Origin: Isurus oxyrinchus | Lineage: Eukaryota | Direction: 5' to 3' | Assembly (NCBI GenBank): GCA_026770705.1 | Contig: JANJGN010000087.1 | Coordinates: 62,001 to 126,000 of the forward strand | DNA length: 64,000 nt | Part shown: one piece after another, positions 4,959 through 59,217 of the stretch | How positions within the stretch are numbered: position 1 is the first letter of the stretch | How the letters are laid out: the number at the start of each line of letters is the position of its first letter | Notes under the pieces: generated by a model | What the model was told of the DNA's origin: nothing | The model's input: the letters and a program-made list of their open reading frames with translations, nothing else | Databases searched by the model: none | Program-made: the position numbers and the translations under genes

Positions 4959-5105
4959 ACCAGCTAACCAGCTTATATTTCAACTCTTTCTTGGACTCGA
5001 AATCAAGTTCTGTCGAAGGGTCATGAGGACTCGAAATGTCAACTCTTTTCTTCTCCGCCGATGCTGCCAGACCTGCTGAGTTTTTCCAGGTAATTCTGTT
5101 TTTGT
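4959..5105 (+). mobile_element. Short Penelope-like terminal-repeat (pLTR) insert with 13-bp TSD
   Basis: Flanked by TTTAGAAACATAA at 4946-4958 and 5106-5118. Near-identical to the copies at 18538 and 20192, and homologous to the 3' end of the PLE fragment at 19374-20065. Confidence 0.8.
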
Positions 5106-18302: not shown

Positions 18303-18724
18303 CTGAGCAGATCGTTATGGCAACATGGGTGGGTGCAAGGAATGGTGATCCCAGTCACATCATTCACAACTCCCATCCCCACGCCCAGAGAGTCCGCGTA
18401 ACCTCTGCACTGAACAGTGTGCCTTCCCCACAGTGAGCCCCGCCCGGTGCATCACGCGCAGACCCGTAGTCCAGCTCCCGAAACACCACAGCGGTGTCCT
18501 GCGTGTCCCAGCTGAGACCAAACTGAGTCCCCCACTTCAGTTCTGTTGAAGGGTCATGAGGACTCGAAACCTCAACTCTTTTCTTGTCCGCCGATGCTGC
18601 CAGACCTACTGAGTTTTTCCTGGTAATTCTGTTTGTGTTACAGTCCGCTACTTCCCCATGTAGTGAATCGCCACTCTTCCTGAGCACCTACTGCCCACAT
18701 TCGACCGTCTTAGCTTCACTGTCT
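18303..18724 (-). pseudogene. SRCR pseudo-exon, paralog of SRCR1 (58903-59217), interrupted by a pLTR insert
   Basis: Translates KWGTQFGLSWDTQDTAVVFRELDYGSARDAPGGAHCGEG. Relative to the intact copy the acceptor is AG>GG, the donor is GT>GA and Cys residues are lost. Confidence 0.9.
18538..18641 (+). mobile_element. Short Penelope-like pLTR insert with degenerate ~12-bp TSD
   Basis: Flanks are AGTCCCCCACTT (18526-18537) and AGTCCGCTACTT (18642-18653); the intact paralog has a single ACAGTCCCCCACTG. Confidence 0.82.
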
Positions 18725-20166: not shown

Positions 20167-20191
20167 CTGAAATGTAATATTGAGAATTAAC

Positions 20192-20410
20192 AAAACAAAA
20201 ACAGAATTACCTGGAAAAACTCAGCAGGTCTGGCAGCATCGGCGGAGAAGAAAAGAGTTGACGTTTCGAGTCCTCATGACCCTTCGACAGAACCTTCTTT
20301 TCTTCTCTTCTTTTCTTCTCCGCCGATGCTGCCAGACCTGCTGCGTTTTTCCAGGTAATTCTGTTTTTGTTTTGGATTTCCAGCATCTGCAGTTTTTTTG
20401 TTTTTATCTC
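20192..20410. mobile_element. Inverted pair of Penelope-like pLTRs with perfect 14-bp TSD
   Basis: TATTGAGAATTAAC at 20178-20191 and 20411-20424. The arms 20192-20256 and ~20309-20373 are reverse complements with one mismatch. Confidence 0.88.
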
Positions 20411-26716: not shown

Positions 26717-28494
26717 CTTGGAGAGGGGGAAAGATAAAGCATAGAAGTTATTGTTAAGATGTGGGGCCACAGCAGGAGGTGGCACAATCTGTGGTTGATG
26801 TTAGTACTTTACTGGAGCATCATCCGATTCACGCTGTTTTTTTTTTGAACCTTTGATTGGGTTTTATTTTTAAAACCAGCAATGATTCAGGAAATCCTGA
26901 AACAATTTGTATCAATTTTATCGATTCCACAGAAAGGACTGAGTGACTCTGCAGTGCAGTGCCAGCCGAGAGGAGGAAGTCAGTTTACACAGGCGGAATC
27001 CAACGTCTGAAATTGTCATGTGGTCTGCATTCGAACGGGAGGGATTCCTTGTGACAACGTTTACTACAGCTGCTTCGTTCTACTGGTACATGCGAATCAA
27101 TCAGTGGTTTGCCGAAACAGTCTTTAAAATAAAATAAATGAACTCACATCGAATTGAGTTCAAGGTTCTGGATACCATTGGGAGAGTAATTTGGAGGCCT
27201 AGACAATGAATCATATATTTAGGAAGACAGGGGCAATGTCATATCCGAGCTGGAAGGAAGACTGGAGCTGATGGATTTGGCAGTTGGATAAACCGATTAA
27301 AATCAGAGTAGGATTAGATAAAAAGGGATATATTTCAGCAGAGTAATAGTGCAAAAATGTCTTTAACAGTTGAATTAGCACAAGAAAACATCATTACCTG
27401 TGCACATTTGTGTTATGGAACCAGTAAGCTGGGAAGAAATCATGTGTGATCAATTCCCTCAGCACATTTTCGAGCATTAAATTTAAACATGTTCTTGAAA
27501 TCATGTTGTTTTTTCTACTGAATTGTCAGATGGTACTAAAATCACGATAGTGAAGCTGTCAACTGACATCATGGAAATGAAAACATGACGATATTATGCC
27601 TAGTCTGCAGTAAGGAAGGAAAATGAAGCTTCAATAAAAAACTCTCTTGAAGGCTTGACAGTTTTAACTCACACCGAGCAGATCCACCATTACTCTGCAC
27701 TATATGTGGCACCATCGTATGTGCAACTTAAAATCAGTTTTGTCTCAATAATTGTTGTGAGCAAATCAGCTGTCCCACCTTATGCATGATTCACACTGAT
27801 GATAGTTTTACATTATTTTGTTCTCTCCAATGCTCTCCAATCTGTTTTCAACGATGATTTTGGCCATTACATCCTGCTTCTCCATTCTATTAGCCAGCCA
27901 GTTTTCAAACTTTAGTATTCACAATCTGTGCAGTTGTTCAGCCGCGGTGAGCAGTTTAACAATTTGAGCAACAATGCATCTCTCCAACTGTTTGTATCAC
28001 GTACAATGCACAGAAAAAAAAAATCATGCATCTTCCAAGTTGACTTCACAAAAATATAAATAAAATAATTGTCTTGTATTTTTGTAGTAAATTATGCACG
28101 CCTTCCTTACGTTTCAGCTATTGACTGTCTACAATCATGCCTTTTAACGAAGCTTTGCAATAACAAAGTCAACTTGAAGATCCTGCCCTCACATATTCCT
28201 TTATTTGACTTTTAGATCAATATCCCATTGAACAAAAACATGTTGTGAATGAATACTTTTTTTTTGCAATTTATGGTCTCTCTTTCCTAATGGGTAGTTT
28301 GCAACAAAAATATTAATTCTGTCCATTGATTGCACAATACTAGATCTAAAATTGCCAGTTGTCGAGTTGGTTCTTCAAGATGCAAGTTCAGGAAACAATC
28401 TTACATGCACCCCAATATATATACCTACACAACATTAGTACTGATTAGTATTTCCCAGTTTATTGTACCTTGAACATCCTCATGATTACTGATA

Positions 28495-29895
28495 TAAGCC
28501 AGGGAAGAACAGTCCAGTGAGTCTCAGGTCAGTTATAGGGAAAATTAGAAAAAGTTCTGAAGGAGAGTCTCTCTCTCCACTTGGAAAGGCAAGTTTTGCT
28601 CAGTGATAGTCAGCATGACTTTGTCAGAGTGAGGTCATGCCTAACAAGTTTGATTCAGTTTTTTGAGGAGGTGACCAGATGTGTAGATGATGGTGCAGTT
28701 GGCGTAGCTTAAATGGATTTCAGCAAAGCTTGTGACAAGGTCCCACATTGGAGACTTATAAAGAATGCAAATGCACATGGGATTCAGGGTTATTTGATAA
28801 GGTGAATTCAAAATTGCTTAAAGTGAAGGAGGTAGAGCGTGATGACAGAAGGATGCTTTAGTGGCTGGAAACCCGGTCCATCCAGTGGCGTACCAAAGGG
28901 ATCTGTGCTCGGTCCACCATTTTTGTCAATCATATAAATGACATATTTGACTATGCGGGGGTTATGATTAGTAATTTTGCGTATGACACAAAGATTCGCT
29001 GGCTAGTTAGCAGTGAGTTTCAGTGTCTTGTGGATCAGGAAGATATAGATGAGAAGGTCAAGTGGGCAAATAAGAAACAGATGGAATTTAACCATGAAAA
29101 GTGTGAGGTGATATATATTGGAAAGATGACTTTGTCAAGGAAGTATTCAATGAACAGAATGTCACTTGGATGTTCTGAGGAACAAAGGAAACTTGGCGTG
29201 TGTGTCCATAGTTCCCTGGAGGCAGAGGGGCACGTTGGTGGGACTGTGAGAAAGGCTTATTGGAGACTTGCCTTTATAAAACAAGGCACAGATTAGAAAA
29301 GGAGGGAGGACATGTTGGAGCTTTATAGACCATTATTGAGACCACAGCTGGAGTAATGTGTGCAACCCTACTCGCCACATGAAAGGAAGGATGTGTTTGC
29401 ACTGGAGATGGTGCAAAGGGGATTCACCAGGATGTTGCCTGGGATGAAACATTTAAGCTCTGTAGAGAGTTTGAATAGATTGGGTTGTTTTTGTTGGAGC
29501 TGAGAAGACTGAGGGACGACATGATCGAGGTTTACAGGATTATGAGGGACATGGGCAGGTTGGATAGGGAATAGATGTTCCCCATATTTGACCTCTCAAG
29601 GGGGCATACTTTAAGGTGAGGGATAGGAGGTTTAGGGGGGATGTGAGGAAAACTTTTTTTTTTTACCAGAGGCTGGTAACGGTCTGTATTGCACTGTCTG
29701 GAAGGGTGGTGGTGGCATGTTGCCTCACATACTTTAAAAAATACAAGGATGAGCATTTGGCACGTCATAACATTTAAGGCTATGGGCCAAGTTCTGGGAA
29801 ATGGAAATAGGTTGTTAGGTCTGGTTGTAATCTCGTGTCGTTGCAGACTCGATGGGCCGAATGGCCTGTTCTGCGCTGAGATGCTGTGATTCCGA
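28495..29895 (+). mobile_element. 5'-truncated CR1-type LINE (RT region to 3' end)
   Basis: Motifs MDFSKACDKVPH, SGVPKGSVLGP, ISNFAYDTKI and QMEFNHEKCEVI; closely similar to 9150-10560. Confidence 0.9.
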
Positions 29896-30999: not shown

Positions 31000-31570
31000 T
31001 GGATGAAATTTATTATTCCTCTAAGGGGGGCTCTGCCGTTTCGTACAGAAATAAAGCTGATTTCCAGAGGAAAAACGGTCCACGTATGATTAGCGAAAGA
31101 GACCAGGTGACGAAGAAAGTGCATTTGGTGATGTAGTAGGTGCCAATTGCAAACACAGTAAAATAATTGATCTTTAGGTTTGTGGAAAGTAGGTATAGAT
31201 GGGAGTCTAGCATGATGCTGATGCAGAGGAGCAGGTCGAGGGCGGAAGTGCAGGATATTGGACAGTCATGGTCGAGATCCCTGTGTGCCCCAATGAAGCC
31301 GACTTATGGGCAGAGCATGGAGGAAATAATTTCTATAGTAGTGTTGTGGAACGTGGCCCAATTAATACAGATGTGATGAAGGCGGAGGAATATGAAAAAT
31401 CAACTGCGAAATTACAGGAAGCAGAATGGCAGGAATAATGATAAAGATTGGTGTACATGACAGCAGCATTGTTATACGTATTGTAAACAGTCTATCCCCA
31501 CAAATGGAAATAGGAAGTCGAGCGAGGAAGCGGGAGGCCTCACAGATAAGTCATGCATAGGGAGGACAGC
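31000..31570 (-). mobile_element. Degenerate Penelope-like RT/linker fragment
   Basis: The reverse strand resembles the PLE motif GDRL..Y..SSHP.SC...FLRLRRIC...ATFH; heavily decayed. Confidence 0.5.
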
Positions 31571-32234
31571 AATTGAATTATTTTATATAATAGATAGGTG
31601 GTCTATTCCAAGTCAACACCAGTAAACTAAAGGCAGAATAACATAGCAGTTAAAATATCAGAAATAATGTTCCCTTCACATAAACAAAGGGATAGCTAGG
31701 ACTCTTAAGGATTTAATATAATTATTCTGCTTTCATTGGAGAAATGCTGTAGATGCAAAGGTGATTTTTCCAATAAGAGTTAAGCTTCGACAGATGAAGA
31801 TTGTTGCTGTTACAAGGCAATTATTTGGACTGACGTATATGAATGAAAAAGATGGGTCGTTTGGAAAGCGTGGAAGGGGTCAGCGATGAAGCAATCCACA
31901 GAATTCCCAGTAACGTAGGAGGCTAAAAATCCACTTGTAATCTTGGTGAATAATAATTAATAGGGATGAGGGAGAGATCGAGACTACCCATTCTGAGAAG
32001 AGACAGAAGTGGCTTTTCCAAGTATTGTGCTGCACTGGATTTGAACGTAAACCTGAGGGATGGTGGTAGTGGGTGCCATGCCAGGCTGTCCTTAACAGAA
32101 GCTGAGGTGTTAGAATGAATGGATTTCCAACTCAGTGATAGAGTTGTGGAGCGACTTAGTGTATTGGTGAGCGATGAACTTGCAGAAAGATTGGTTGTTC
32201 CGGCGTGGTCTGGAGAGGTAGACGGAATGGATGT

Positions 32235-32625
32235 CATAGTACAAAGAAAAGTACAGCACAGGAACAGGTCCTTCCGGCTCCAAGCCTGCGTCGATCATAT
32301 TGACCATCAACTAAAACATTTTGCACTATCCCTCTATTGCCGTCCTATTCATGTATTTGTCAAGCTGTGTTTTCAACACCTCTATCGTTCTTGATCCTTT
32401 GGAGTTCGCTGCCACATGAATTAGTACAGGCCAAAACATTGCATGTTTTAAAGGAAGACTTGATATAGCTCTTGGGGTGAAATGGTTCAAAGGATGTTGG
32501 AAAAAAGCTGGAGCAGGATATTGAGCTGGATGATCAGCAATGATCATAATGAATGATGGAGCAGGGTCGAAGGGCCCAATGGCCTACCCCTGCTCCAATT
32601 TCTATATTTCTATGTTCCTATGTTT
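32235..32625. mobile_element. Two CR1 3'-end fragments in opposite orientation
   Basis: A minus-strand 3' end at ~32235-32390 and a plus-strand 3' end at ~32420-32625 ending in a TTCTAT(G) microsatellite tail. Confidence 0.65.
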
Positions 32626-32629
32626 CACA

Positions 32630-33140
32630 TAAACTCTCTCCCTATCTCTCTCTCTCACACACAAACACACATGTGCAAAGAAACACTCACTCACGCAAAC
32701 ACACACAGAAATACACACAGACACAACACGCACACACACACAAAAAATCACACAAACGCGCAAATGCGCAGACACACATATGAATACACATAGGCAAACA
32801 AAAAATGATTCACACCTGCTCACATAATTACTGTCACAAGCAGAGATACTCAAGCACACGGACAAAATCTCACAAGCACTCCCTGACACACAAACACACA
32901 GAAAAGCACACGTGCACACACTAACAGCATTACACATATATCAGGTACATAAACACACGGGAGTTTCCACATTCGCAGAAATTTTAAGATAAACACCCGT
33001 TTTCACACACAGAAATATACAGGAATAAACATACACGTCTCTCCCTCTCTCTTACACACACACATTCATGAACACACAAATGAACAGACACACACATGCA
33101 CACACAGGCACATACATACACATTATCTCACACACGCAGC
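32630..33140. repeat. (CA)n-rich low-complexity tract
   Basis: Degenerate CA repeats. Confidence 0.85.
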
Positions 33141-33559
33141 CAATGACTCAGACAAGGACTTTCAGGCACCAATATGCAGGATAATCCCACAATGCACATC
33201 ACCATGTCTATACAATCCACTGGCTCCACGTGCACCTGTCCTCTCCGAGTCCCCCTTCCGGTGACCTCAGCAGCCCCAACTCCACATGCCGAGGAGGGTA
33301 CCTCTTCCACATTTTAGGACCACGAAAGCAGGCTGGGTACCTCCAGAGGCTGCCCGTCAAGGTAAACACAATCAACAGGCTGTGTCCACTTCTGATCTGC
33401 ATTCTGGGGTTCAACAATACGTATGGGCAGAGTTTGGAAGTTTGGGAAATGGACTTGCAGAGCCTGGGCAAGTGTGTTAATCCCTTCTACTTCACTAGTA
33501 TAAATTAACTCCCCAGAATGTGCCTTTCCTGTGTCTCCTTGTTATGATGAGCAGTGTTT

Positions 33560-35090
33560 GTGACACTCGGATATGAAGTTTGATAATCTGTATATTTGCA
33601 GCAATACATCCCCCCTCCTTTACTCGAATCTTCCAGCTATGAAGGCCGACACACCATCCGCCTCCCCCATTGACCACTGCACTAGCATGCTTACCCTCAA
33701 TGGCAGGTGCACAAGGATCCCCATACCTCTTTGCCCACTCCCCTCACTCAATTCAAAGCCATTCAGATAACGATCTGCCCTCCCATCCCTGCGACCAGAG
33801 TGGACAAACTCACATCCGTCCCCAGCACACTGCTTCTGGCATGCAGCAGCCCACCCACTCAACCTGTCCAAATCACACCGAAGCATCTCCGCATCCTCCA
33901 CACAGCTCACCCTCCCAACCAGAACCATGCCATCTGCAAATTCGGAGACACCACACCCAGCTCCCTCGTCCAAACCATCGACACACACCCTGAATAATTT
34001 GGATGTCAGCAACGACCCCCGCAGCACTGCTCTATTCACTGCCTGCCATTCGGTAAAAGACCTGCTCATGACCGCTCCCTAATTCTTGCCTGCCAACCAG
34101 TCTTCTGTCCGTCTCTGACTCTGTCCGATTCTGCCACTGCTTCCCAAGGGCTCACCTACCAAATATTCCAAATTCAACTCCTGAATTCTCCACACCACCG
34201 TTGTCAGCCCGACTGGTCAACAACTCCCTGCCTTCTCTCTAACTCCCCTTCCAAATTTTGCTGTTCCATTAGTTAAACTCCAACCCGCAGGAACTTTACC
34301 CGACTCTACAGAATCTCGGGATATGACCACCAGTGCATCCACCACTTAAAGGGCGACCTCCCCAAGTACACTGGGACGTAGAAAATCAGGCCCCAGGTTT
34401 CCACTGGCCCTCAATCCCATCAATCCCTCCAACACCATTTTTGTGGTCCCTTACAGCTCCTCCCTTACACTCTAGACCCTGCTCTCCAACATTTCTGGCA
34501 CGTCATCCACGTCCTCCTTTGTGAAGTCAGAACAAAAGTATCCATCTGGTTGGTCAGCCACCTCTTCGTTCTCAATCATAAATCACCTGTTTCTGACTCT
34601 AAGAGACCCGCACATGTATCCACCAACCCTTCCCTCCTCACAATCTATAGAAGCGTTAACAGTCAGTTGATATTTTCCCGCAACTCTACTCGCACACTCC
34701 ACCCTCGCCACTTAATCAATCCCCTGGTCTTCCCCTGACGAACTCTAAAGTGCTCCCAATCCTCATGTTTTTCCCTTTTTCCCCTCCAACTTGTCTTCTG
34801 CTTCCTTGGATCCAACACTATCCCCAATTTCCCCTGTAGGCCATGGATCAGACACCATTGCTATCTCCCCCTTGCGCCAGACATGAACAAACAAGTGTTG
34901 AAGCCACAAAGCTCCCCCCAAATATCCGTCACTGCCCATCCACCGTCATCCCTCCAAACAACGTTTCCAAATCCAGCATAGGCAGGCCGCACCCCAAACC
35001 ATCGCAGTCTTCTCCATTATGTTTCAGGACCCTTGTTTCAGAACAAAATACGTCACTCTCTGTCCTCATGAAAAACCATATCATAGTCAC
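33560..35090 (-). mobile_element. CR1-type LINE ORF2 fragment with sense-strand A-to-G hypermutation
   Basis: ORF 33620-34069(-) aligns to CR1 RT, but with IYIND>VCVDG, NISKFADD>GVSEFADG, DKCE>DGCE and KKANGML>GEADGVS. Confidence 0.9.
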
Positions 35091-35099
35091 TTAACATCA

Positions 35100-35850
35100 C
35101 TGGGGAGGGATGAAAGTGTAGAAGGACTGGATGCCCGCGGAGGGAGATGTGTAGAGGTACCGGATGCCAGGGGTGAGTGAGGTGGCCTGGACAAGCTGGA
35201 TGTCTGGCTCAGTAATGGGAATGCAGTCTTACTATGTGCCAGGCTGAGGGATGAATGTGTAGAGGGAAAATGTATGCTGTTGAGTGTCCGATGCGCAGGA
35301 TAACTGCATGCCCTGTGATGGATGCAGGTGAGGAGTGACTGCCAGTCATATTGCGGGATGGAGGTGAAGAGAGATTGCTTTTCCTGGTGAAGATGAAGGG
35401 GTAGAGGGTATGAATACCTTGTTGGTAGACGAAGGTGGAGAGGGATTGAATTTCCTCGTGAGGCATGGAAAGGTGGAAAGATTGTGTGCCCTAGAGAGGA
35501 ATGTAGATGTGGATGCGGCATTTAGGTGAAGAGGAACAAGATATCCATTGAGGGAATGTTATGCAGAGGGACTACAAGATGTGGCGACTGATGGAGTTAA
35601 AGAAGGACTGAATGTCATTGTGAGGGATGTTGGCATAGTGAAACTGGATGTCTTGTTGAACAACATATATTCAGAGGGACCAATTGTATTGCTGAGGTAT
35701 GTGTGTGTAGAAGAACTGGATGCCCTGCTGATGAATGGATTTGCAGGGGGACTGAATGTTGTCGTGATGCATGAGGCTTAGAGGGATTGGGAAACCTGGT
35801 GAAGATAGAGTTCTATGGGGATTGGCTGTTCTGCTGAGGGAAGGATGCAT
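35100..35850. repeat. Degenerate ~35-36-bp purine-rich minisatellite
   Basis: An ACTGGATGYC-like core recurs at ~35126, 35159, 35195, 35231, 35303, 35338 and onward. Confidence 0.55.
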
Positions 35851-36179
35851 CACGTTTTTATTCTTTTGTGGTATGCGGGAGTGGTGGTAAATTCAGATTT
35901 TGTTGCTGATTCCTAATTGCCCTTTAATTATAGAGTTCTAAGGAAGGGAATTCCAGGACCCTAAACCAACAACATGGAAGGAACGGTGATACAGATGTAG
36001 TGCTATGTCCTAGTTGTTGTAGGGGAACTGGATGTCCATTGTGAAGCAGAATTAGTGAAGGCCAGGATACTAGAAATGGTTAAGCATGTTGCATATTGTC
36101 TGAAGAGAATTGTAAATGACTTTCAAAATATTAGTGATAGCAAGAAGTGAGAATGATGTGTCAGACAGCTATACCATTT

Positions 36180-36640
36180 TTATAAAGGAATTTGCGTGAT
36201 GTTGCATCACTTGCTAGGCCACTATACCCTGCCCATTGCCAATTGCCCTGATATTTATGATGGGAGCCAAATTCCTGTGGTGTAGATACATTCTCTGTGC
36301 GGTTCAGTGGGATTTCCAGGAATTTTGTGCATCGGCAGTAAAAGAACGAAAATATACTTCCAAGTCCATACGGTGTGTGAGACTTGGATGGGAAATTGCA
36401 GGTAGCATCGCTTCCATGCGCCTGCTGCCCTTGTCCTTCTATGTAGGAGATCTCGTGTGTGTGGAAGTTTTGCCAAAATAATTTTACGCAGTATTTGCAG
36501 TGTATCTTTGAAATGGTACACACTGCTAGCATTGTCAAAGGGAGAGGGAATGATTTATTTAAGGCCGTAGTTGGCGGGTGGTGCAGCAGTCAAGCAGGCG
36601 ACTTTGTACTGGATGTTCTTGAGTGTCTTGAATGTTATGG
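36180..36640 (-). mobile_element. 3' fragment of the second non-LTR family, minus strand
   Basis: Reverse complement of the 25070-25590 and 45700-46200 type sequence. Confidence 0.7.
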
Positions 36641-37821
36641 GAATTCAGAAGGATGTAGAATATGCTCGAGTAGACTGTGGCGTGAGGGGGAATTAGTTTC
36701 CTGTGTGCATAACTCCAGCATCCATGGTGTCCCGAGAGTGTCTGGGGAAGGATGGCTTGATGTCAACTGTTGGTGTCTCGCTACAGGTGAAGACAGGACA
36801 AAATTCCAAACAGCTGGTGATTTGGTTCCACCAGCTGGAAGATTGGCAACAAACATTAAGCGCGATTACGTCTCCACCAGCCTTTCAGAGAAGGAAGAAT
36901 TTTTTCCCTGAGCGTACATAGCACAGCAGGTTCACAGGGACAGAACACAGAGTGCTAGAGCTGAGCGTTTATTTAATCAATCCGGCCCATGACCCTTTCA
37001 CAGACAGGAAACATGAGCACTGTTTCTCTAACAGTCTATGTTATGTCATTATTTGAACATTTTTACTCTATTTTGTGCTGTATTTGTTATAATGGTGGCC
37101 CTCTGCATGTGGTCATGCCTGATACAATCGCCAACCTCATGGAACTAAAATAAGAGCTGCTGGGGGATAGTGCACGGTGAATTATTTCTCCTGAGTCAGT
37201 TAGATCTGAGCTCCACTGATGGACAACTGAGCAGTTATGTTATAATAGTAAAGTATTGGAGACATATTGAATTCTGAATGTTTTCCTCCCTCCAGACTCG
37301 ATAACCCGACAGTTAGATGTTGTGCTGTCAAGCAACATTGTGCTGTTTTGAGCTGCTATGAGAATGCAGCTCTCTGTGTCCCACGTATGTGGCAGTCTAG
37401 AGAGAAAGTACACTAAATGGAGGTAAAACAAATATTCCATTTATTGCCCTGTTCCAACCCTTCATTTGTAAGGCATTTGGAAAAAAAAACTATTACAAAA
37501 TGGAACTGAAAATAACTTTTAATGATAGTCATCGGTTCTTCAATTCTCTTGATGGGTTGTATTGTCGATACAGCGGAGTGTGCTACAGTTTAATAATATA
37601 CATGAAAATGCTCGAAAAAAATCCATTGTCCTTCAATTCTGATTAGGCAGTATTTATACTTTTTAAGATAATTTATAGATTTAAGAAACGAATCTAGATG
37701 TCTCCACACAAGGTAACGTTTGTTTTTTTTTCTCAAAACATGTTTATGTCGGAAAGTTAAGCATCTTCCAGATGGATATATTTATTGAAAACTTAAGGTC
37801 GTTCCCTCAGATATCACACAG

Positions 37822-46604: not shown

Positions 46605-46752
46605 CTATGGGTTATTAAACAAAAAATATAGAACTTTAACTTAGAAAGTCATCTCTTTTTCATCATTTACAAATTCATGAGATGTATTCAGCAAACAATC
46701 ACCAACCGCCAATCTCCGGGCCCCTACTCGCACCATTCTGCAATACCCTTAC

Positions 46753-47070
46753 CGGAACAAATCACACTGGCGTCCTCCTTGTGATCACAGTCAGTTTGAG
46801 CAGACGCTAAGGAAGGACAATCAGAGAGAAAGGATTCGCTTCCGGTACACCTCACCTCATCAAACCACATGTCACCTTCACCCTGTCCAAAAGTGGCCCC
46901 TGCTGTGGCCAATAGAGCAGAGCCACAATGCAGCTGTCTGCAGACAACACTGGCATCGGCCATATCCCAAGAGTCATCACACACTGTGCTCCAGTTGTTT
47001 TTGCACATTATCTCCACTCGCCCGGAGCAGTTGGTGTTACCTCCAATCAGGCGCAAACCTACATCTGAAT
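46753..47070 (-). CDS. SRCR domain 7 exon (membrane-proximal)
   Basis: [47 protein letters not shown]; AG/GT, 318 nt (an alternative in-frame acceptor exists at 47064). Confidence 0.93.
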
Positions 47071-47298
47071 CTGTCAAAGATAATCAATCACTATTATTTC
47101 TGCACAAAAATACAGGTAGACAACTCAGATAATTGATCTATTAAAGTGGAGCAATCACCTGATTCTCGACCACAATCCTTTTCACTTTTGGGCTGGCCCT
47201 TCGTTATCTTTCTTCCTGTTGAGGAAAGAAACGTGCTGACTCATTTGGACATCAATGAATGAAATAACACTCGCACATTGGAAGGTTTGTTTTGTTAC

Positions 47299-47616
47299 CT
47301 GAACATGAAACGCCTGCATCCTCTTTGTGATTACAGTTGTGTTGTCCCCACGGGTCTGTCTGACACTGCCAGATGGTCGAATCGTGTGAAATACATTCTA
47401 TTTCATCGAGCCAAATAGGTCCGGATCCTTCTCCGAATGACTGAGTGGTATAGTCTATAGAAACCAGGGGGCCACACTGTAACTGTTTACAGATCACCTC
47501 AGCATCATGGCGATCCAGTGCTTCCGAACACACTGTTCCCCAGATTCCATTGTAGAACACTTCCGCCCGCCCCTCACAGCGATGCTTTCCATTCACCAGC
47601 CGCAGCGCTTTGTGTT
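47299..47616 (-). CDS. SRCR domain 6 exon
   Basis: [51 protein letters not shown]; AG/GT, 318 nt. Confidence 0.93.
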
Positions 47617-48606
47617 CTATCAATGAAAGAAGAAATCTCCAGATGTTTCCAGTGATAAATGGAATCATGTCAACAGTGCCCCCTCCACCCAAGTTGTGCC
47701 AGAGGTGTTCACTGAATAGAGATAATTATTCCAGAAATGTAACAGTGATACATGTACAATCCAATTATATAATCAATGATAATCAACACAGATTTCAAAA
47801 GAGCGAACTCTCGATCTTCCAATTCATTGAATTACTTGAGGAAGTTTCAGAAAGATTATGTGGAGATAATAATGTCCATGTAATCCACATGGATTTTGAA
47901 AACAATAACTTTCAAAAAGTTTTCAAACAGCTGCATTAAGGCTGAGAACAGGGAAATGACATTGCCGGCACAGTATTAATAGAAGAGCCAACAAGCGACA
48001 ACGCAGGATTTCATATATAATAGCAGAAGTTGGGGCGTGCTGTACACATGGATTATTGCTGGGGCTCACATCTGTTTCAGATTAACATATTACATTTGGT
48101 ATTTGGAATTGAAGTGAATGTTCAAAATGCACTACGGTTTGCAGTTAATACCAAGACAGGTTCCATTAACTGCAGGAAGACGGTCGGAGACAGCAGGATA
48201 GGCTTGTCAATGCTGAAATTATTTCAATGCTGATTAGAATAAAGTCGTGATTTTTTCGGACAAAGAAACACAAGAGCCAAACAAATTGGGATTTAGGAGA
48301 TTTTCTGTTTCGCTTTCTATTACCCAGATAGAAGGAGAATGTGGAACATGGAACATGTACATTTAGTGGGGGCGAATTGTGGTGATGCCTTGAATGTGAC
48401 GTTTGATAAAGGCACGAGGGGAAAATACAGAGTGCAATACAGCTCAGACCACATGAAATGATGTAAGATTATGAGAAGAATATGCAGCAGTCAGACGCAT
48501 TGAGCAGAATGACCAGTTGATGTACAGTTTCTGGGCCATTCAGTAAAATTCCATCTGTCTGAATCTTCTCGTATGAAGGAAATAAGTGCATTTAAGTCAC
48601 CCTTAC

Positions 48607-48921
48607 CTGAGCACATGATCTTCACATCTTCTTTATGAGAACAGTCGTGGGCACCCCAATATTCAGAAGGACATTGCCAGAGATACGATTCCTCCCCTGA
48701 ACACTCCAAGCCTTCCAACCAAACTGGACCTGAGCCTGCTCCACAAGAGTCAGGAAGTGTCACGTCCAAAGCCTTTCCGCAATGCAGCTGTTTGCAAACG
48801 ACGTCAGCGTCTGTCAGATCCCAGGAATCATCACAAACTGAGCCACAGGTCCCGTTATAGTAAATCTCCACTCGGCCTGCACATGGGCTTCCACCGTCTG
48901 ACAGCCTTAACTGTTTGTGTT
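48607..48921 (-). CDS. SRCR domain 5 exon
   Basis: LRLSDGGSPCAGRVEIYYNGTCGSVCDDSWD..CSHKEDVKIMCS; AG/GT, 315 nt; the conserved W of WGSVC is Cys here. Confidence 0.93.
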
Positions 48922-49886
48922 CTGATCCAAAGAAGACAATCTTTACTAAGAGGATTCGATTACGCATTTATGTCATAACACAAATTGAAACTATTGGACA
49001 TTATCCAGCAAAAGTAATAGAACAAATCACTTGACTATGACAGGTAACTGTTTCTATAGTTGAGACCATGTATTTCTAATTACTTGAAATTTATAATGTG
49101 GAGTGAAAAAGATTTCAAATATTCCTACACCTGATTCCATCGATATTTTGGCTTGCAGTTCACGTATTGTGTGCTCAGTGCTGTGTGCCCTGTTTCAACC
49201 TCAACTGAACTTTTTTGTATTCATCGTTCCACCTAAACTACTTATGAACATCAATTGTACACAGCTTTTTCTCTCCCCTGCACGTATCTCGAAAACTTAT
49301 TTCAGTCGATTTCTGATTATATCGCTTTTTTATTTTGATTATATTGAAAAAAAATGCTGCAATTCCTCAGGGGATCTGGCAGCTTCAGTGGAAAAAAGAA
49401 ACCAAGTGACTTTTAAGAATGACATTTCATAGAAGCTCGGTCTTCTGCTGCTGAAAGACCTGTAAGTGCATCGTTTTTTCATGGATTGAATAATGCAGAA
49501 ATCCCATGAGCGGCCTGTCGCTCTGATGAGTATGAGAACGGCAATTCTATGAAAACGTTGTTAAATTAACACACAATTTCGCACCAAGCTGTAAGGCCCC
49601 TCCCAACACCACACCGCCCCGCCCCTCACAACTCCCCCCGCCCCGCACTAACAGAAGTGCTGTCAGAATTTCCTGTTTGAGAGAAAATTTTGAATTCCGT
49701 CGTTAATAAATGCGGAGCAAAAATGCATGTCCTGCTTGTTGATCAGTTCTGTGCGTGCCGACTCTCCCCACGTTAGCCCTCCAATGCTAAGCAGTTAGGT
49801 TAAAAGAACTCGTGACGTATATTCACACCTCCCTCCTTATTAGATATTTCTATTTATGTTCCGGTAAAATTGAACTATTTATTCAC

Positions 49887-50201
49887 CTGAACACAGAACC
49901 CCGACGCCGACACTTTCATTGAGAGACGAATTCATTGCAAATGAGCTGCAGTTGCGGAGATACAGTTCGTTTCCTCCACACTGGACATCATTCACCCACA
50001 CAGGCCCTTCACTCTCTCCATACATTGCAGAGGTATAAGCGGCAAGTGCGACACCACATCCTAGTTGCTTGCAGACCACGGTAGCATCATTGAGGTCCCA
50101 GAGGCTGTCCTGTACTCTGCCCCAGCGACCGTTGTGGTAAATTTCCACACGACCATCACAGCGGCTTCCCCCATTCGTCAATCTCAGTGACCAACTTTCA
50201 T
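49887..50201 (-). CDS. SRCR domain 4 exon (6-Cys variant)
   Basis: LRLTNGGSRCDGRVEIYHNGRWGRVQDSLWD..VGVGVLCS; AG/GT, 315 nt. Confidence 0.93.
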
Positions 50202-50999
50202 CTAGAAGATGAGAGCAAGGGGTAACATTCAAACAAATCATGCACATCTGACTCAATATAACCGGGGCAATGATTATTCACGTAAATGTTCTGACCCTAG
50301 TGCCAAGGTGAGGCAGATCAGTGGGACCCTGCTGAGCACGCTGATGCGGGAGGGTGAGCAGTCAGCATTCGTGCTCCGTTAGTGGAACAATTTCAGAGGT
50401 AGGAAGAGGGGTGTAGTCCTGCAGATGATTTTTAAGGATGTTGCAAACAATCTAGTAAATTGCCATCAACGGAGTAATATCCTGATAATATTGAAATATC
50501 CCAGCACAACGTACGAGCGATAGAACTAATGAACATGTCGTAAGATAAACGGTGCACGAGAGTCCTAATGAAGCTCATGTGACTTTGTGACCTGTTCTCA
50601 TGCACTCATAGACTCAGTTCTGTGAAGAAAGGACCAATGGATGTTTTCATGTGTTTCACATGAAAAAAAATCCGGCGGCAATGTCCGTCTGGTTTATTGG
50701 TTGGACAGTACAGAATGAATTTGTCAGGGATTTGGGAACGGGCAGATATAGTTAGAGAGAAAAACCAAACTGCACAGAAAAGTAGAAAAGAAAGATTGCA
50801 ATAACGGAGGAAATAATGTGGTGTTATTCATGATAAGCACAACCGGGGTTGTATAATGGCCTCAATTATATTTACTTTTCAGGTATGTGAACGTACATTG
50901 CAATAAATGATGTTCGTGACGTACAGGCTCTGAAAATGACTGAGGAGCAATAATGGAAAATTGACTTAGACAAGTGCAGGACTATGCAAAAGCTCAAAG

Positions 51000-51900
51000 G
51001 CTCCCTGGGTGATTAAAGAGATGGGGATTAAGGTGAAACAGAAATAAATATATATGGATAGGATATTGAATTTGGATAATGCAAGCGAGATCCAAGATGA
51101 ATGTACAATATCCAGACCATATAAGAGACTCCCACTAACATAAAACGGGATCTTACAGTCTTATATAGGCACAAAACAGACACCAAAAAGGAAATCGGCA
51201 TATAAAGGCTGATGTTATGGCTCAGCTGCTGAGTCAGCATTTTGAGTATGTTTTTTAGCCAAGGAAGAAAATGCTCCTCGATGCTGGACAAAGAATAGGC
51301 AGATGAAATAAAATGGAGTGTTTAGATATTTGTAAAGAGGACGAATTGGCTTGGGCAACTGATGTTGAATTTGACGGGACACATGGATTGGATGACGTCT
51401 ATTCGGGGAGCATGACCAATGTCAGAGCCGAAATCGCCAGATAATGGTCATAATGTTCCCATCCTTCTTCAATGCCGATAAATGAAGTTTCCAAATATTA
51501 CACCCTTGTTCAAGAAATGGTGTTAGGATAAATGCTGTAAATTCGGACCAGTAAGTTTAATATTGGCTTTGGGAAAGCTTTGTTTCCTTGGAAAATATAC
51601 ATTGGGGCAGAAGTTAGAGCCAGTTGAAAAATGTAGTTTTGGTAAGAGACAATCGCATTGCACGGACTTGCTAGAGTAATTTAATAAGGTTAGTGAGACT
51701 GTTAATGAGGCTAATGGAGTGGATTGGGCTTTGATGGACTTTGAAATGACCTTTGGCAAAGGGTCACGATAGCTGCTTGGCAGAAATGTTTGGCGCCTGT
51801 GGAATAAAAAAAAATGACTGATTGGAGATGGAATTGCTCTTTGAAAGGGAACAGGACGTCGTGTTCAACGTTTCTTCTTTTCCAGACCAGAGGAACAGGA
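51000..51900 (+). mobile_element. Degenerate CR1-type ORF2 fragment (intronic)
   Basis: Remnants resembling NITPLFKK..DKCCKFGPVSL and MDFEMTFGK (MDFQKAFDK-like). Confidence 0.55.
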
Positions 51901-52139
51901 CATTCCACCTGGCTAGAAACCCTGATTTTCCGTTAATACATGATATCTACCGAGACTTGGTTGTAAGGGGAACAATTTCATTTTTTTTCCTCAAAGAATA
52001 CAGAATTTTTTTAAGTGTTGTAAAATGTTGAAAGATTAAAATTAAATCAGACACCGACAAGCTGTTAGAACGGGCCGGAAAGTTATAGACGAAATTCGGT
52101 TGAGGGAAGCATTGGTTGGCCCATTTTTGTTGGAAGTAA

Positions 52140-52590
52140 AAAAATACGTATTTAAAGTAGATAGGTATTTTTTTCAAAACTCCCGGATGCCTGAGCGCAA
52201 GTTACAGTCATTTATTTGCATTGTGTAATCTCAGCACTGTTGCAATTTAAGGAACGCCGCAGCCATAATGGGCGCAGTAAAATGGCACAAAAATCGTGTG
52301 ATAATGACCAGATGAGCTACATTGTCTGATGTTGATCAAGGGATAACTTTGGATAGACTCCCTAGTTTCCCTCAAAGTAGACCCATGGTAAATATTTTTA
52401 TTAACCTCCACTGATGCAGATATGGCATCGATTAAACCTCTTACCTGGAACAAGCAAAATTATAGAGAACAGCATTCCCACAGCACTGCACTTCATTCAC
52501 AGACTTGACTGCTCTGCTAAATAACTTGAGTCATTCTTAAAACAGGCCTTGTGCTTTAGAAGTGAGTGTTTTTAAGAGAGGTAAGGCTGG
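52140..52590 (-). mobile_element. Degenerate Deu-type SINE (SacSINE1-like)
   Basis: gataatgaccagat..gatgttgatcaagggata..cccatgg..cagcattcccacagcactgcact matches the reverse complement of the shark DeuSINE body as recalled. Confidence 0.55.
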
Positions 52591-52659
52591 CAAACGAAGG
52601 ACTAGGAGAAGGAACAATAAAGAACTGGATCATTTCTGAATGAGTTTCAGAAGCTGACG

Positions 52660-54295
52660 AACCTCGGGTACATTTGTAAGAAACATTGTACTTGACAGCG
52701 CAGGTTGCGAAAAGGCTGCTAAAGTTTGGAGTTCTTTGGTGTATAACTAAGGCACAGAGTACACTGAAGGGAAGATGTTATGATTCATTTCGGCCTCATC
52801 TGGAATAATGCTTCCAATTCTGGGCTAAAAACGTTAGGGAGGGTGTGAAGGCATTAGAAATGATGCAGAAATGCTTCATAAGGTCATTCCGGTGATGACA
52901 AACGTATTTTTTCTACATTGTTTGAGTGAGCTACGAATATTCTACTTGGAGAGGGAATGCTAAAACAACCTTCGGGTTCTGGACATTACGGCACAGAAAA
53001 ATTGTCGCCATTGGCGGAAGGATCAAGAATGATCAGTACAGATTCATGGTGATGGACAAATTGGAAATGGTGACATAAGGATGCTAGTTTTGCATGTTGC
53101 GATTAATTACGTTCTGCAATGCACTGCCTGAGAATGTGGTGGACGAGGATATGCAATGCACTGACTGAAATTGTAGTGAATGATGAAATGCAAAGCACTG
53201 TCTGAGAAAATGCTAGCTTAAGATCTGCAATGCAATGTCTTAGATTGTGATGGATGAGGATCTGTAATGCATTGACAGAGAATGTGGGTGATGAGGACCT
53301 CGGATGCAATGTACCAGAATATGCTGGATGGCAATCTGCAATACACTGTCTGAGAATGTGATGGATGATTGTCTACAATGCACTGGCTGAGAATGGGGGT
53401 AGGTGAGGATCTGCTTCAAGCTATCTGACATGCACATTCTGAGATCGTGGGGGGGGTGAGGATCTGAAGCACACGGTCTGAGATTGTGGGGGATGTGGAT
53501 CTGCAATGCACTGCTTGAGAATGTGGTGGATTTGGATCTGCAATCCACTGCCTGAGAATGTGGGGGAATAAAGATTTGCAATGCACTGTCTGAGAATGTG
53601 GGTGATGAGGGTCTGGAATGCACATGTATGAGAATGTGCTGGATGACGATCTGCAATGCTCTTTCAGATAATTTGGTGAATGAGGACATGGAATGCACCT
53701 TCTGACAAGGTGGTGGATAAAGATCTGAAATATGCTGTCTGAGATTGTGGTGGATGTCGACCTGCAATGCACTGTCTGAAAATGTGGCGTATGTGGATCT
53801 TCACTGCATTTTCTGAAAATGTGAGTGACGAGGATCTGGAATGCATTGTCTGAGAATGTGCTCGATGACGATCTACATTCCACTGTCTAAGATTGTGGTA
53901 TTTGATGATCTGCATTGTACTGTTGGAGAATGTGGATAATGAGGGTCTGCAATGCACTGACTGAGAAAGCGAAGGATGAGGATATGAAATGCACTCTCTG
54001 AAAATGATGGTGATGAGGATCTGCAATTCATTGTTGGAGAATATGGTGCTTGAAGATATGAAAAGCATCGTCTAAGAATGTGGCGGCGAGGATTTGAAAT
54101 GCACTGCCTGAAGATGTGGTGGATGAATATGAATCGTAGATTTTAAAATATATATGGTTAGATAAATGAGTGAAAAACAATGCACAGCTTTTGTAAATTG
54201 CAGGGTTGTGTGAGTGGGTGAGATACTTTCACAGAGAGCCTCCATGGACAGAACATGCTGAAAGGCCCCTTTCAGTGTTGCAGGGAGATTATTTT
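52660..54295 (+). mobile_element. CR1-type LINE 3' fragment split by an internally derived minisatellite
   Basis: An RPHLE*CFQFW-like remnant at ~52790; the 3' UTR resumes at ~54130-54295 after the repeat. Confidence 0.6.
53112..54128. repeat. 37-bp minisatellite, ~27 copies, consensus GATCTGCAATGCACTGTCTGAGAATGTGGTGGATGAG
   Basis: Period read directly (TGCAAT at 53115, 53152 and onward). Confidence 0.92.
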
Positions 54296-54327
54296 AATCC
54301 ATGATTACATTGACTGAGAAGTCTCAC

Positions 54328-54641
54328 CTGAACAGATGACACTGGCGTCATTTCCATGTGAGCAGTTAAAATTTTCCCCGGATGTAACCCGACACTCTGT
54401 CACTCGCGATTCATTCCCGTGGCACCTGTAATTTTCCTTCCACACAGGGCCTGCTCCCTGCCCAAAGGGAGAAACCCTCGGGATTTCCTTTACAGCCCCG
54501 CACTGAAGGTGCTCACACACCACACTGGCGTCTTCTAAACCAAAGTGAATATCACACAGGGTCCCCACTGCTCTCCGTGCAGCACTTCCACCCGGCCGGA
54601 GCACCTGTTCTCACCACCAACCAATCGGGGTCCATGCTTCC
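54328..54641 (-). CDS. SRCR domain 3 exon with a -1 frameshift (314 nt)
   Basis: PRLVGGENRCSGRVEVLHGEQWG / TLCDIHFGLEDASVVCEHLQCG..CSHGNDASVICS is split across two frames at the C run 54563-54566. Confidence 0.85.
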
Positions 54642-55810
54642 CTGTTTTTAATAAAAACAAGGACGAAAATATTTTGTAAATGAACATTTGAATATAGACA
54701 TGGCGAAACAAAGAAAAATGAAGGAATGAAAATTTATAAATACGTGTTGTACTGCACTGTTTATACATCTTACTGTTTGAAACTCACTAGACTGCGATAA
54801 GCCCTTAAACGAACGTGTCTGTTTGCTCAAAGTAGAGGGTTCATCCAGGAAAATGCTAACGGAATTTTGGACTTTGTCTCAACAGCTTTGAAATACCAAA
54901 GAGAGGACGTGACGTTTCAGTCATACCCAGTATTGGCCAGAACCAACCTGTATAACAGCTGTCAGATTTGGACAGGGCACTCCAGAAGAAACTATTCGTC
55001 TTGGAGGGGATGCAACGTATATATAGAAGGATGCTTAATTTACTTAAACATTGTATTGTGATTCCGAATCGAACAAAAATGTCTTGAAGCTATTTACTCT
55101 GGAAGGATTAGGGCTGATTAAACGATGTTAAAAATCTTAAATGGATTTCAAAGATTTGGCAAAGAGTCACGGGTCCAGTAATCCAGAACAAGGTCACTCA
55201 AGGGATGAAGTTGTTGTTGCCGGGGACAGGAATATATTTGAGACGGCCTGCATTTATTCCTGTTTTCTATATTCCCCTGTGGAAGCGATTGAAATTGATT
55301 CTCTTGGACTGTTGACGTAGGCACATAGCACATACAGTTGCAATGCTTCTACGGAGATAATCCCACTATTTTGAGCAAGAAACAAGAAAGGAAATTTTCT
55401 CCTAATTATTTACTTTATTTCGGTCAATTCATTGAAACGCCTCTCTAAAATAATGCAACCACAGTTAAATATTGATTCGCCTACTTTTATAACTAATGAA
55501 GTCATTTCACGTTTGGCAGACAGAAAACGACTTGAGAGTTCAATCGATAATGGGTGTTCTGGCAAATGTCAATGAAAAACCTATGTATGGTGCAAGCATT
55601 AATTTCGCAATAATAATGCGTTATTTTCAGATTACGCAGAAGTTACTGACTTAAACATAATTGCGTTATTCCAGAATCATAAAACGCGACAGTGAACTAT
55701 AAAGAAGTGCTTGGGAATGATCATAATACAAGGAAACAGCAATGGCATTTTCTCCGTTTCTGAAAAGTTCACCAGAAAACCTTTATGTGTTTCGGAATCC
55801 TTCTACTCAC

Positions 55811-56125
55811 CGGAACAGCTCACACCGACATCGTTCATGTGGGTGCACTCGTTTTGATTTACTGGAGAGATAGGGCAGTCTGTCAGGCTTGTCTCATTGC
55901 CTTTACAATCAAATTTATCGCTCCGTAGAATTCCAGTGCCCTTTCCAAAATAAGCCCCTTTTTCCACAGACACAAGGACTCCACACTGAAGCTGATGACA
56001 GACCACACTGGCGTCATTCCAATCCCAGTGAAGATCACACACTGTTCCCCAGGTTGTACCGAACTGTATTTCCAGTCTGCCCGAGCAGTTGGAATCCATG
56101 GATACGAGTCTGGGAAACCTGTGAT
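55811..56125 (-). CDS. SRCR domain 2 exon
   Basis: PRLVSMDSNCSGRLEIQFGTTWGTVCDLHWD..CTHMNDVGVSCS; AG/GT, 315 nt. Confidence 0.93.
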
Positions 56126-58902
56126 CTGAGTAACAACAATTCATGATTGTCCCAATCATTTTCAATTTTGTGCATATCTGTTTAAGCAAAACCTGTGATG
56201 AGGACTTCTGATAAGGATTTCATCCCGGCACAATAGCGATTAAGCTAAACCCCACTATCCTCCAGAAGTTATTGCTTGTAAAGAGGCCACATGCATCCTT
56301 TAACACACTTAGATTTACTGCTACCTCAGTACAGTGTTACAAGCATGCACTATATCTGCAGAGAGAACTTGGCTAAACATCTATTGAGAGAGAAGTGCTC
56401 TTTGACGTCAAACAATCTCTGCACTACCTGCAGCGAAAGTTCTTCATTGCATATTATTCTTATACCGGTTCCCGCCCGGAATCCATAGACTGAAATGCAA
56501 CCATACCATCCTTCACCCCAACACATGTGCACACATTCGAGGTCCGGTCGATAGATCTCATTGATGTAGATCACCAAGAATTCGACTTTTCACAGCTGGT
56601 ATTTCATTGGCACTAATGCCCAAATAGAAACTACATCAAGTTGCATCCAGGCAACATTCCCCCCACCCACGGACACCACCCCCCCCACCTCAACCCCCGC
56701 CAACCCAGCCATCATTGCAGGAAAACATCTGATCAACAAAAAAATTCCCTTTCTCTTACATTCTGTATATTCTATCGAGTTGAATTTAATAGTTTTAAAT
56801 ACATATTTATTCTCAAAGTCCCAATTCATCTACTTTTACTACCTCTGGCCCCTCATTTTTCAATCCCCCCTCTTGAATTATAAGACCCACTGTTCACAAC
56901 ATCTACTTATATGGAAGTCACAGCAGCTTTCTCTTCATGACACTTTCAGGGCGTAACTCTTCCCTGGAACCGGGCGACTGCAACTAGACATATCCTGTGA
57001 CCGGCCAGAAAATTACTCAGATAAATCCAGGAACCCTGACTTGTCCTCGAATCTACCATTTGATCTGCTGGCGTTTGTTCTTTCGTCGATGGAGCATATT
57101 GACGAACACAGACACCAAATAACCTCAAACATAAAATGATTGATCCCACAATACTTTCCCAGTGAAACGTTCCGAACACTGGAAGCACAAAGCGATGTTA
57201 AGTGCCATTTTGAATATGTCAGTAAAATGTAACGGTCACATACAAGGGGCAAAAACAGGCTCGTGTTATTTTAGTATTTTTAAAGTACTGGCAGCTGAAT
57301 CCAAACGAAACAATCACCGGATAACCATGTACAGTTTTGTGAACCAAGCCTTAGTTTTAATACGCTGATCATTTCAGGAGTGCATTTCGGGCTCCCCAGA
57401 ATGTTTCCCGTCTTCCAAGTGCAAATTTGAAAGGACAGCTTATGTCAATTGGTTCATGTTCCCGTACATCGCCTTTTGATTCCCGAAGCTTTAAATTTAA
57501 TAGATCACTGAAGCATTTCATACTTATATATATAATCAATCACATACAAAGGGAGCCTCTTAAGGCCATAATCAATGTGCAATTGAATGGGGAGACAGTG
57601 ATACTCCAACAATATTCTCTCTCTTCCTCACTCAGACCTCACTTCTACTGTAATCAGGTCAGTGAGAGGCCATGAGAAAGCAAACTCATTGCAACCGAAT
57701 AGTCTTCACGGGCCTTGGCAATTAATGTCCGGTAACCTTCCATCTGTAGCCTGAATTGCATCGCATAATATAGGGGTGAATGGATTAAAACAAAAATGAC
57801 CCTCAATAATTATGGGTCATTGGATCCAGGACACCAATTACACTGTCAGATGCATTAAAATATTTGGATGACAGACTATCAGATCGCTGCCTTCTACAAT
57901 GTTTACCAACGTTGTTCATGGATCGTTTGTCCATTAACGAATTTTGTCTCTGAATATCGCTTCCACAGTTGTAGTGCCAAAATCTTACTGGTGTGAAACG
58001 TGAACATTGTCTGTCCACAGGTACCCCTTACCCAAATCAGTGGTTTTAACATCTTCTGTTTTTTTTCTGAAAAAAATAGTTACATCGTTTCCTTTACATT
58101 TCACATTAGATTTTCTGTACTGTCGTGCAGCAGAAAAAAAAAAAAACAGCTAATTCCGTGTGAGAGACGATGTGGAGCTGGCGGTTCCTTCCCAGTTCCA
58201 GATTCACAACCTGTAAAATATCAGACCAATTATTCCGTACTACGGAATCTGGGAAACCTGAGGAACGGCTGCGATGAGCATGCGGAACCTGCGGAAGTAT
58301 TGGCGCCTTGAAGTATGTGTGAACATCCTGGGAAGTTTCAACGTCATCTGGGGAGTTCCCCTGCTCTCTGGGAAACTCCGCAATAGAGCTGAATCAAAGA
58401 CACCTGCATGCTCCGGTGTGCTCCCCAGGGTCGTTAAACCAGAGAATTTATACAGGGAGTGAGAACATAAAACACTGATCTAACAGCTGGGCAACTGAAT
58501 AACCGGACTCTGCAATCGCTCTCACTGATTACCGCAAGAGCATGCCGATCCATCCATGCGAGTGGCGAGGGAGAGGGTATAAAGCTTGCGGGATTTTCCA
58601 AACATTCTTCGCTTTCCATGGATTGTCCGGGTCACCTCACAGGAAGAAGCCAGCAGTGATATAAAGTGGGGTGCAACGTGCCGTTCCGGTGTGAGCTTAA
58701 CTTCATAAATTAACACAATTATTGACATGAATGTATGACACGCAAAGATTCTAATTATTTATAACATTAACTCCAACTAGAATATCCTGCCCTAAGTCTC
58801 ATTCTTCAGCTATCGGCTGTCCCAAAATAACATTTCTGCCTCTATTCCAGGGGAAAGAAATCGGATACGATGGGCGATGCGAAGCAGAAGAAATATTTGT
58901 AC

Positions 58903-59217
58903 CTGAGCAGATCGCGCTGGCATCATTGTTGTGTGAAATGGAATAGTGATCCCAGGAAGCTGATTTACAGTCTCGCAGGGCGGCCTCCTTCCCGCTGCAC
59001 TCAACATTATATGTCACAATGGGTCCGGAGCCTTCCCCAAAGTGAGCCCCGCCCGGTGCAGAGACCGCGGTCCCGCAGCCCAGCTCCCGACACACAACAG
59101 TGGCGTCCTGCAGGTCCCAGCTGATACCAAGCACAGTCCCCCACTGCCCTCTGTAGTGAATCTCCACTCTTCCTGCGCACCGACTGCCCCCATTCGCCAG
59201 TCTCAGTTTCACAGCCT
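58903..59217 (-). CDS. SRCR domain 1 exon (6-Cys variant)
   Basis: LRLANGGSRCAGRVEIHYRGQWGTVLGISWD..SHNNDASAICS; ttttacag|...|gtacaa, 315 nt. Confidence 0.93.

Follow-up and report, generated by a model that had tools for sequence, protein, structure and literature searches.

The window analyzed here, a stretch of 64,000 nucleotides of Isurus oxyrinchus (G000:C87:62001-126000, in a genome of 4.98 Gb), includes a region at 46727-59251 in which four minus-strand open reading frames match Pfam SRCR (four of the seven proteins scanned), and which is for that reason regarded as a scavenger-receptor gene cluster. The SRCR unit on this strand is presumably CD163/DMBT1-like, and a degenerate 37-bp minisatellite of 28 copies sits between its exons (53113-54126). 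Together with a decayed S/T/P-rich stretch, the unit is present in about 20 duplicates at 91-99% on contigs C87, C62, C47, C114, and C303, while older paralogues are found on C18, C20, C27, C203, and others. The window also carries an imperfect palindrome made of two inverted ends of a young repeat (20191-20374, 4966-5111, and 18539-18639; 93-97% among the three). At 28082-28493, an inverted CR1-related fragment directly abuts the 5′ end of a plus-strand CR1 at 28491, a possible 5′ inversion.

A hypermutated fragment of a CR1-type LINE, derived from the reverse transcriptase (RT) region of ORF2 and truncated at both ends as judged by comparison with its family, occupies 33588-35099 on the minus strand. 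A reading based on sequence only had announced such an element at 33560-35090; it does lie at that place, with the borders given here. The fragment corresponds to family columns about 794-2518, has an internal deletion of ~188 nt at 34115, lacks its 3′ end, and adjoins with its 5′ end the right junction of the insertion described below. Family copies match PF00078 (RVT_1 reverse transcriptase, ORF2), and the fragment is 53% identical (E 7e-49) to one of the copies with this match; its own frames gave no match in the Pfam scan. It contains eight stop codons, none of them created by A>G. The placement in the CR1 clade, as opposed to L2 or Rex1, is a putative one that we take from the CR1 motifs and the type of tail.

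In a genome search with 33560-35090, the best 40 of 4307 candidates were scored. Five small contigs together account for 20 of these places, at 94-100%, and the remaining matches were at 71-74%. The first group has flanking DNA in common over kilobases, which implies one insertion that was duplicated along with the SRCR cluster. The sequence-only reading had considered that many genomic copies with the same G alleles would speak for a genuine G-rich subfamily; 19 other copies do carry these alleles, but since they have the flanks in common as well, they go back to one insertion that was multiplied by segmental duplication. In one duplicate (G000:C114:267135-271274), the edited piece is missing its 5′ part, and at the point of loss lies a CR1 in inverted orientation that belongs to another subfamily (59% identical to the reference).

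For the reference, 10 independent copies of the family were taken as the best-scoring ones among the best 40 of the 4307 candidates, and one of them (L028) was left out as partial. The remaining nine are 90-95% alike and their column majority forms an open frame of 868 codons, which is why this majority was used as the reference. At non-A columns, the edited copy matches it at about 85%, whereas the 10 outgroups all lie further away (52-71%), and later ordinary mutations affect ~12% of its columns (177/1454). CR1 copies in the duplicated clusters (window 7665-10553, 28491-29892, and 33588-35099; L159-L178) generally show transversions of about 8-9%, compared to 1-3% in the best chromosomal CR1 copies; age, faster local mutation, or top-hit selection may account for this higher load.

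Compared to the family majority, and read on the sense strand of the element, the window copy alone shows A>G at 163/502 sites, next to T>C at 19/336, G>A at 23/412, and C>T at 20/207. The state common to the duplicates gives 159/500 for A>G and 17/335 for T>C (Fisher p 3e-23), with C>T at 21/205 and G>A at 21/414, i.e., without the sense-strand G>A clusters that are the sign of DNA editing by APOBEC. The bias is present in 20 of 20 duplicates, and after background correction the excess amounts to ~134 sites, or 27% of all As. Other changes at A are low (A>C 2.2% and A>T 5.0%, vs. T>G 3.0% and T>A 3.9%), and so are the other weak-to-strong classes (17 T>C, 11 A>C, and 10 T>G). Strand-specific A-to-G hypermutation, the central claim of the sequence-only reading, is thereby borne out, and the equality of A>G and T>C named beforehand as evidence against it was not found: A>G far exceeds T>C. 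Most of the motif changes listed at the time hold as well. IYIND>VCVDG at 33988-33974 comprises six A>G and one T>C, DKCE>DGCE two A>G and one T>C, and all changes in SKFADD>SEFADG (2/2) and KKANGM>GEADGV (6/6) are A>G; the change RDLG>RGMG is real but weak as evidence, with one A>G among five changes. The CR1 motifs cited for comparison at 9583 and 28931 are present. Seen from the plus strand, Ts before C are spared as proposed: 158 TC steps remain, vs. 168 in the family, whose span is slightly longer. In the same comparison, TA (48 vs. 110) and TT (89 vs. 192) are halved.

The direction of change is from A to G, as distant subfamilies have A at 142 of the 155 scored sites. Among the As that are invariant across the subfamilies compared, 49 of 160 are now G; among the invariant Ts, 7 of 109 are now C. 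By codon position, A>G is flat (66/185, 51/177, and 42/138), and non-synonymous changes (123/374) occur next to synonymous ones (36/126) at a neutral rate, as is the case for other changes; both observations point to the decay of a dead copy rather than to the divergence of a subfamily. The predicted depletion of 5′ G at changed As is evident: A>G affects 46/93 As preceded by T, 66/165 preceded by A, 25/94 preceded by C, and 22/148 preceded by G (chi2 p 1.5e-8), i.e., 49, 40, 27, and 15%, respectively. This order, T>A>C>G, equals that published for human ADAR1 and ADAR2 on long double-stranded RNA, U>A>C>G (PMC3113232). A preference for 3′ G is absent: with stratification by the 5′ base the odds ratio is 0.99, a test over all 3′ neighbours gives p 0.08, and TAG is changed at 9/26 sites, below TAA (19/29). 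An excess of 3′ G is described for human ultra-edited RNAs (PMC3197674). However, no obvious 3′ preference is reported for Xenopus ADAR1 (PMC3113232, Eggington), and the missing 3′ G preference therefore counts less against an ADAR.

The burst of A>G changes is a single early event, which is limited to the edited piece and older than the duplications. Within the piece, A>G is evenly distributed (p 0.44), and neither the 420 bp next to it nor the inverted tail nor the right flank shows the burst. Two other CR1 copies of the window, whose transversion load is similar, have balanced changes when compared with their own family (A>G vs. T>C: 14/374 vs. 13/350, and 39/696 vs. 33/581). Changes that followed the duplications are ordinary (16 A>G, 48 G>A, 31 C>T, and 9 T>C). 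CA>TG exceeds CA>TA (8 vs. 4, small numbers), which fits a putative decay of CpG following editing.

Four older paralogues of the locus (L117, L119, L120, and L122) are empty sites, in which window position 32235 is joined straight to 35100. Hence, 32236-35099 was inserted, as a composite insert of 2864 bp; at its clean junctions, the comparison with the four empty paralogues reveals no visible target-site duplication. The halves of the target site, neither of them assigned to a strand, extend over 31043-32235 and 35100-37781, and at the start of the right half, downstream of the SRCR exons, lies a decayed stretch that is S/T/P-rich (mucin-like). The right half is not hypermutated (plus strand, A>G 37/386, T>C 32/445). 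The G-rich DNA at 35100-35900 was considered as a 5′ part of the element that had been edited and inverted; this was rejected, since the DNA belongs to the target site and its spectrum is symmetric.

Along the minus strand, the insert consists of the edited CR1, donor DNA, the antisense 3′ end of the donor CR1, and the CR1 tail of a third subfamily, in this order. The donor-locus DNA (32626-33587, about 960 bp, no strand assigned) begins with a CA-rich tract (about 32626-33165), followed by a flank of about 420 bp; it is 68-73% identical to L148-L158, a multi-copy donor locus, and unedited, with A>G at 4/88 and T>C at 7/73 on the sense strand of the element (33165-33585, scored without the CA-rich tract). 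The donor flank (L159-L178; window 33165-33587) is a low-copy repeated unit on small contigs (1520 candidates). At one of its copies (L174:5418-6089), a frame of 224 aa has no Pfam match; we take it to resemble a C-terminus of the Harbinger/Myb-SANT type. The 3′ end of the donor-locus CR1 follows at 32392-32625 (234 bp, plus strand), belongs to the family of the edited piece, and is inverted relative to it. It carries four of six donor-private variants and is likewise unedited (A>G 5/61, T>C 3/57). The last piece, a 3′ tail of about 150 bp from a third CR1 subfamily (32236-32391, minus strand), has the orientation of the edited piece and ends at the 3′ junction of the insertion. It is 85-88% identical to independent copies, which have RT-type frames upstream, and it is a candidate for the priming end. 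Classic twin priming was rejected for the insert, as the internal junction joins two 3′ ends. In 17 of the 20 donor loci examined, the donor CR1 spans, in antisense, the whole region that matches the edited piece. These donor copies are unedited, and the antisense arm itself is missing from the insert, in which only the donor CR1 tail is present. A descent of the edited piece from the donor CR1 was rejected: the piece has 6/49 donor-private variants, and the sharing of changes other than A>G is at chance. A surviving source locus with either junction was not found among the best 40 of 3110 and the best 40 of 867 candidates.

What is established, namely the strand, the direction, the neighbour order, and the confinement of the changes, their priority to the duplications, the one site with empty paralogues, and the composite insert, bears on several explanations that do not involve the editing of RNA. 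An error-prone polymerase, of the Pol eta or Pol iota type or the RT of the element under skewed dNTPs, could have placed G opposite T when the second strand was made on the cDNA. The mutation motif of Pol eta is WA, and the pattern observed here resembles it: the most mutated As follow T and A (W-A 112/252 vs. S-A 47/242), and the 3′ G preference is lacking. However, Pol eta is expected to leave A transversions at W-A, and these are not raised (20/252, vs. 16/242 at S-A; T transversions 22/335). Moreover, 5′ C (27%) stands above 5′ G (15%), and the adjoining donor pieces, if part of the same insertion, were left untouched. This explanation also needs an error rate of 27% across 1.5 kb, whereas the rates of Pol eta are far below that and Pol iota is distributive, which in sum makes it unlikely. 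If adenines had been deaminated at the DNA level once the insert was in place, e.g., by an ADAR acting on a hybrid of the sense strand with antisense CR1 RNA, the strand and context would be the same as with the editing of RNA. In model substrates, the DNA strand of a hybrid can be a target of ADARs, but according to a review this activity is known from dA-C mismatches or mutant enzymes (PMC12925331), and the CR1 copies of the donor and of the neighbourhood remained untouched although the same RNAs would have reached them. We consider it even less likely than a polymerase. A TpA process that acts on both strands is excluded, as TA>TG occurs at 46/93 sites and TA>CA at the background level (7/95), and AA is changed as well (40%).

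The copies reside on small contigs (0.7-5 Mb), which might raise suspicion of an assembly or sequencing artefact. Yet the 20 copies on five contigs and in both orientations differ from each other by 2-6% and agree on G in 98% of copy-by-site calls on average, with independent ordinary mutations superposed on the G alleles, so that an artefact is very improbable. Still harder to sustain is a genuine G-rich CR1 subfamily, or the retention of an ancestral G, even though 19 other copies have the same alleles: all of these share the flanks, a 34-base stretch of G alleles (≤3 mismatches) occurs 14 times and only on the duplicated contigs, the outgroup subfamilies have A, non-synonymous changes accumulated at a neutral rate, and the second Asp of the RT motif is altered. 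This explanation is largely refuted already. A regional bias, i.e., GC-biased gene conversion among the duplicates or a transcription-associated asymmetry of A>G, has location in its favor, as the copy lies on the strand of the SRCR exons and within a duplicated cluster. The low counts in the remaining weak-to-strong classes and the symmetry of neighbours, flanks, and post-duplication changes are controls within the segment itself, by which such a bias is refuted; we grant it the same very small chance as a G-rich subfamily.

The explanation that we favor, with a probability of roughly 0.8, is that double-stranded CR1 RNA was hyper-edited from A to I by an ADAR, then reverse-transcribed and inserted in the germline, and later duplicated to about 20 copies. 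Accordingly worded as a sequence of steps, CR1 RNA would have become double-stranded, an ADAR would have edited it, and the reverse transcriptase would have copied inosine as G. Exons with the A_deamin domain (PF02137), which may belong to ADAR, ADAD, or ADAT, are present at several loci in the genome. The sequence-only reading had proposed that an A-to-I edited LINE transcript was retrotransposed; the spectrum supports this, but the template may have been a composite read-through transcript rather than a plain LINE mRNA. It had also seen an ADAR-mediated host response in the copy. Edited RNA was probably written into the germline, in one event, while a role in defence exceeds the data.

If editing took place, the antisense RNA of the donor-locus CR1 is a candidate for the partner strand, with slightly better than even chances. 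It is proposed because the flank and the tail of this CR1 are present in the same insert, an argument from adjacency. A transcript that continues past the donor flank and covers the donor CR1 in antisense could base-pair with the sense piece, and this may have happened in trans or within a hairpin whose source locus is now lost. The donor flank and tail, for which the sense piece as retained offers no complement, are unedited, as expected of a loop. Reverse transcription may have been primed at the CR1 tail of the third subfamily (32236), leaving out most of the antisense arm; many LINEs require their own 3′ end (PMC3747384). We hold the figure for the partner close to even because the source junction was not found among the candidates scored and because the pieces were possibly added by nested, stepwise insertions instead of one event. 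The missing target-site duplication, which leaves the four pieces untied to a single event, likewise counts against the favored explanation. More tentatively, and at somewhat less than even odds, the entire insert might be the fossil of one double-stranded RNA: a read-through transcript with an inverted CR1 pair, in which hyper-editing was confined to the paired arm, a CR1 tail within the other arm served for priming, and the unedited loop entered the germline together with the edited arm.

A second edited insertion was not found in four scans of the genome with forced-G motifs, which returned 0, 18, 2, and 0 matches. Eleven of the 18 matches were examined, of which eight are unedited CR1 copies and three have no CR1 alignment, and the other seven are the same 26-mer in tandem arrays; the two matches of the third scan are unedited. 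As the scans are estimated to catch a minority of edited copies and cover two subfamilies only, edited copies appear to be rare in this genome, which does not imply uniqueness. Among 84 same-family segments (redundant, and chosen by similarity or from 20 arbitrary 10-kb stretches), the maximum excess of A>G over T>C is 5.8 points, compared to 26.7 in the edited copy. The CR1 at 28491-29659 was tried as a second edited copy (A>G 78/352 vs. T>C 26/281), but the excess is gone when it is compared with its own family. A duplicated 5′ CR1 segment (L053:6624-7422) shows the opposite bias, with T>C at 11/175 and A>G at 2/279 (p 0.0008, uncorrected, in roughly 90 tests), which is possibly due to mild editing of the antisense strand or to chance.

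Hypermutation from A to G has been recorded in the proviral DNA of avian retroviruses, i.e., in the U3 region of a Rous-associated virus and in an inverted repeat of avian leukosis virus (Felder 1994; Hajjar and Linial 1995; both as covered in the review PMC12925331). As in the CR1 described here, clusters of ADAR-type changes were fixed in DNA via reverse transcription, and they affected up to nearly 50% of the As, with one case tied to the inverted repeat. In contrast to these proviruses, the edited CR1 is a non-LTR element, 1.5 kb long, inherited through the germline, old, and amplified by segmental duplication. Screens for APOBEC “DNA editing” in vertebrate retroelements (Knisbacher and Levanon, PMC4866542; Zaranek et al., PMC2873906) also deal with the strand-specific footprint of one type of deaminase that arises from retrotransposition and is fixed in a genomic copy. 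According to their accessible text, however, they look at G>A from deamination of cDNA, screen LTR elements, and use A-to-G as a filter, whereas the present case is an A>G footprint with ADAR context in a LINE. The RNAs that Carmi et al. (PMC3197674) describe as ultra-edited at inverted repeats share with the CR1 copy the dense A>G, the depletion of 5′ G, and the duplexes derived from repeats, but they exist as RNA only and are enriched in 3′ G, an enrichment that the genomic copy lacks. Chimeric L1 inserts formed by template switching or RNA ligation (10.1101/2025.02.02.635956) resemble the insert in that they, too, are composite: one junction is formed by the 3′ end of a LINE, and further pieces that stem from RNA lie on its 5′ side. 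The L1 inserts are mammalian, show target duplications, and their main text, as accessible, makes no mention of editing; here, the insert is of the CR1 type, has four pieces of which one is hyper-edited, and shows no visible duplication. Edited genomic LINE copies are not described in the accessible parts of PMC5974252, 10.1101/228734, and PMC13343379, and a search that left most subscription journals outside found no published report of an ADAR-edited genomic LINE copy.

The edited copy would be a heritable DNA record of RNA editing, which preserves an ancient enzyme preference and, possibly, ancient duplex borders. Its scope is one event in this genome so far. The restriction of L1 by ADAR1 is independent of editing, and a cell assay detected no editing over 2.5 kb of L1 RNA, as reported in PMC5224506, which counts against the favored explanation; in contrast to this work, the copy suggests that a LINE-type reverse transcriptase can accept inosine-rich, hyper-edited RNA as a template and so carry it into the germline. 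The question is open to a direct test, as the screens published for G-to-A could be applied to A-to-G changes on the sense strand of LINEs. If the insert is indeed the fossil of one double-stranded RNA, the LINE machinery would copy ADAR edits of host transcripts into heritable DNA, giving rise to a class of mutation that introduces more than 130 substitutions at once and is dropped by the filters of the G-to-A screens, and its recurrence across vertebrates would be likely.
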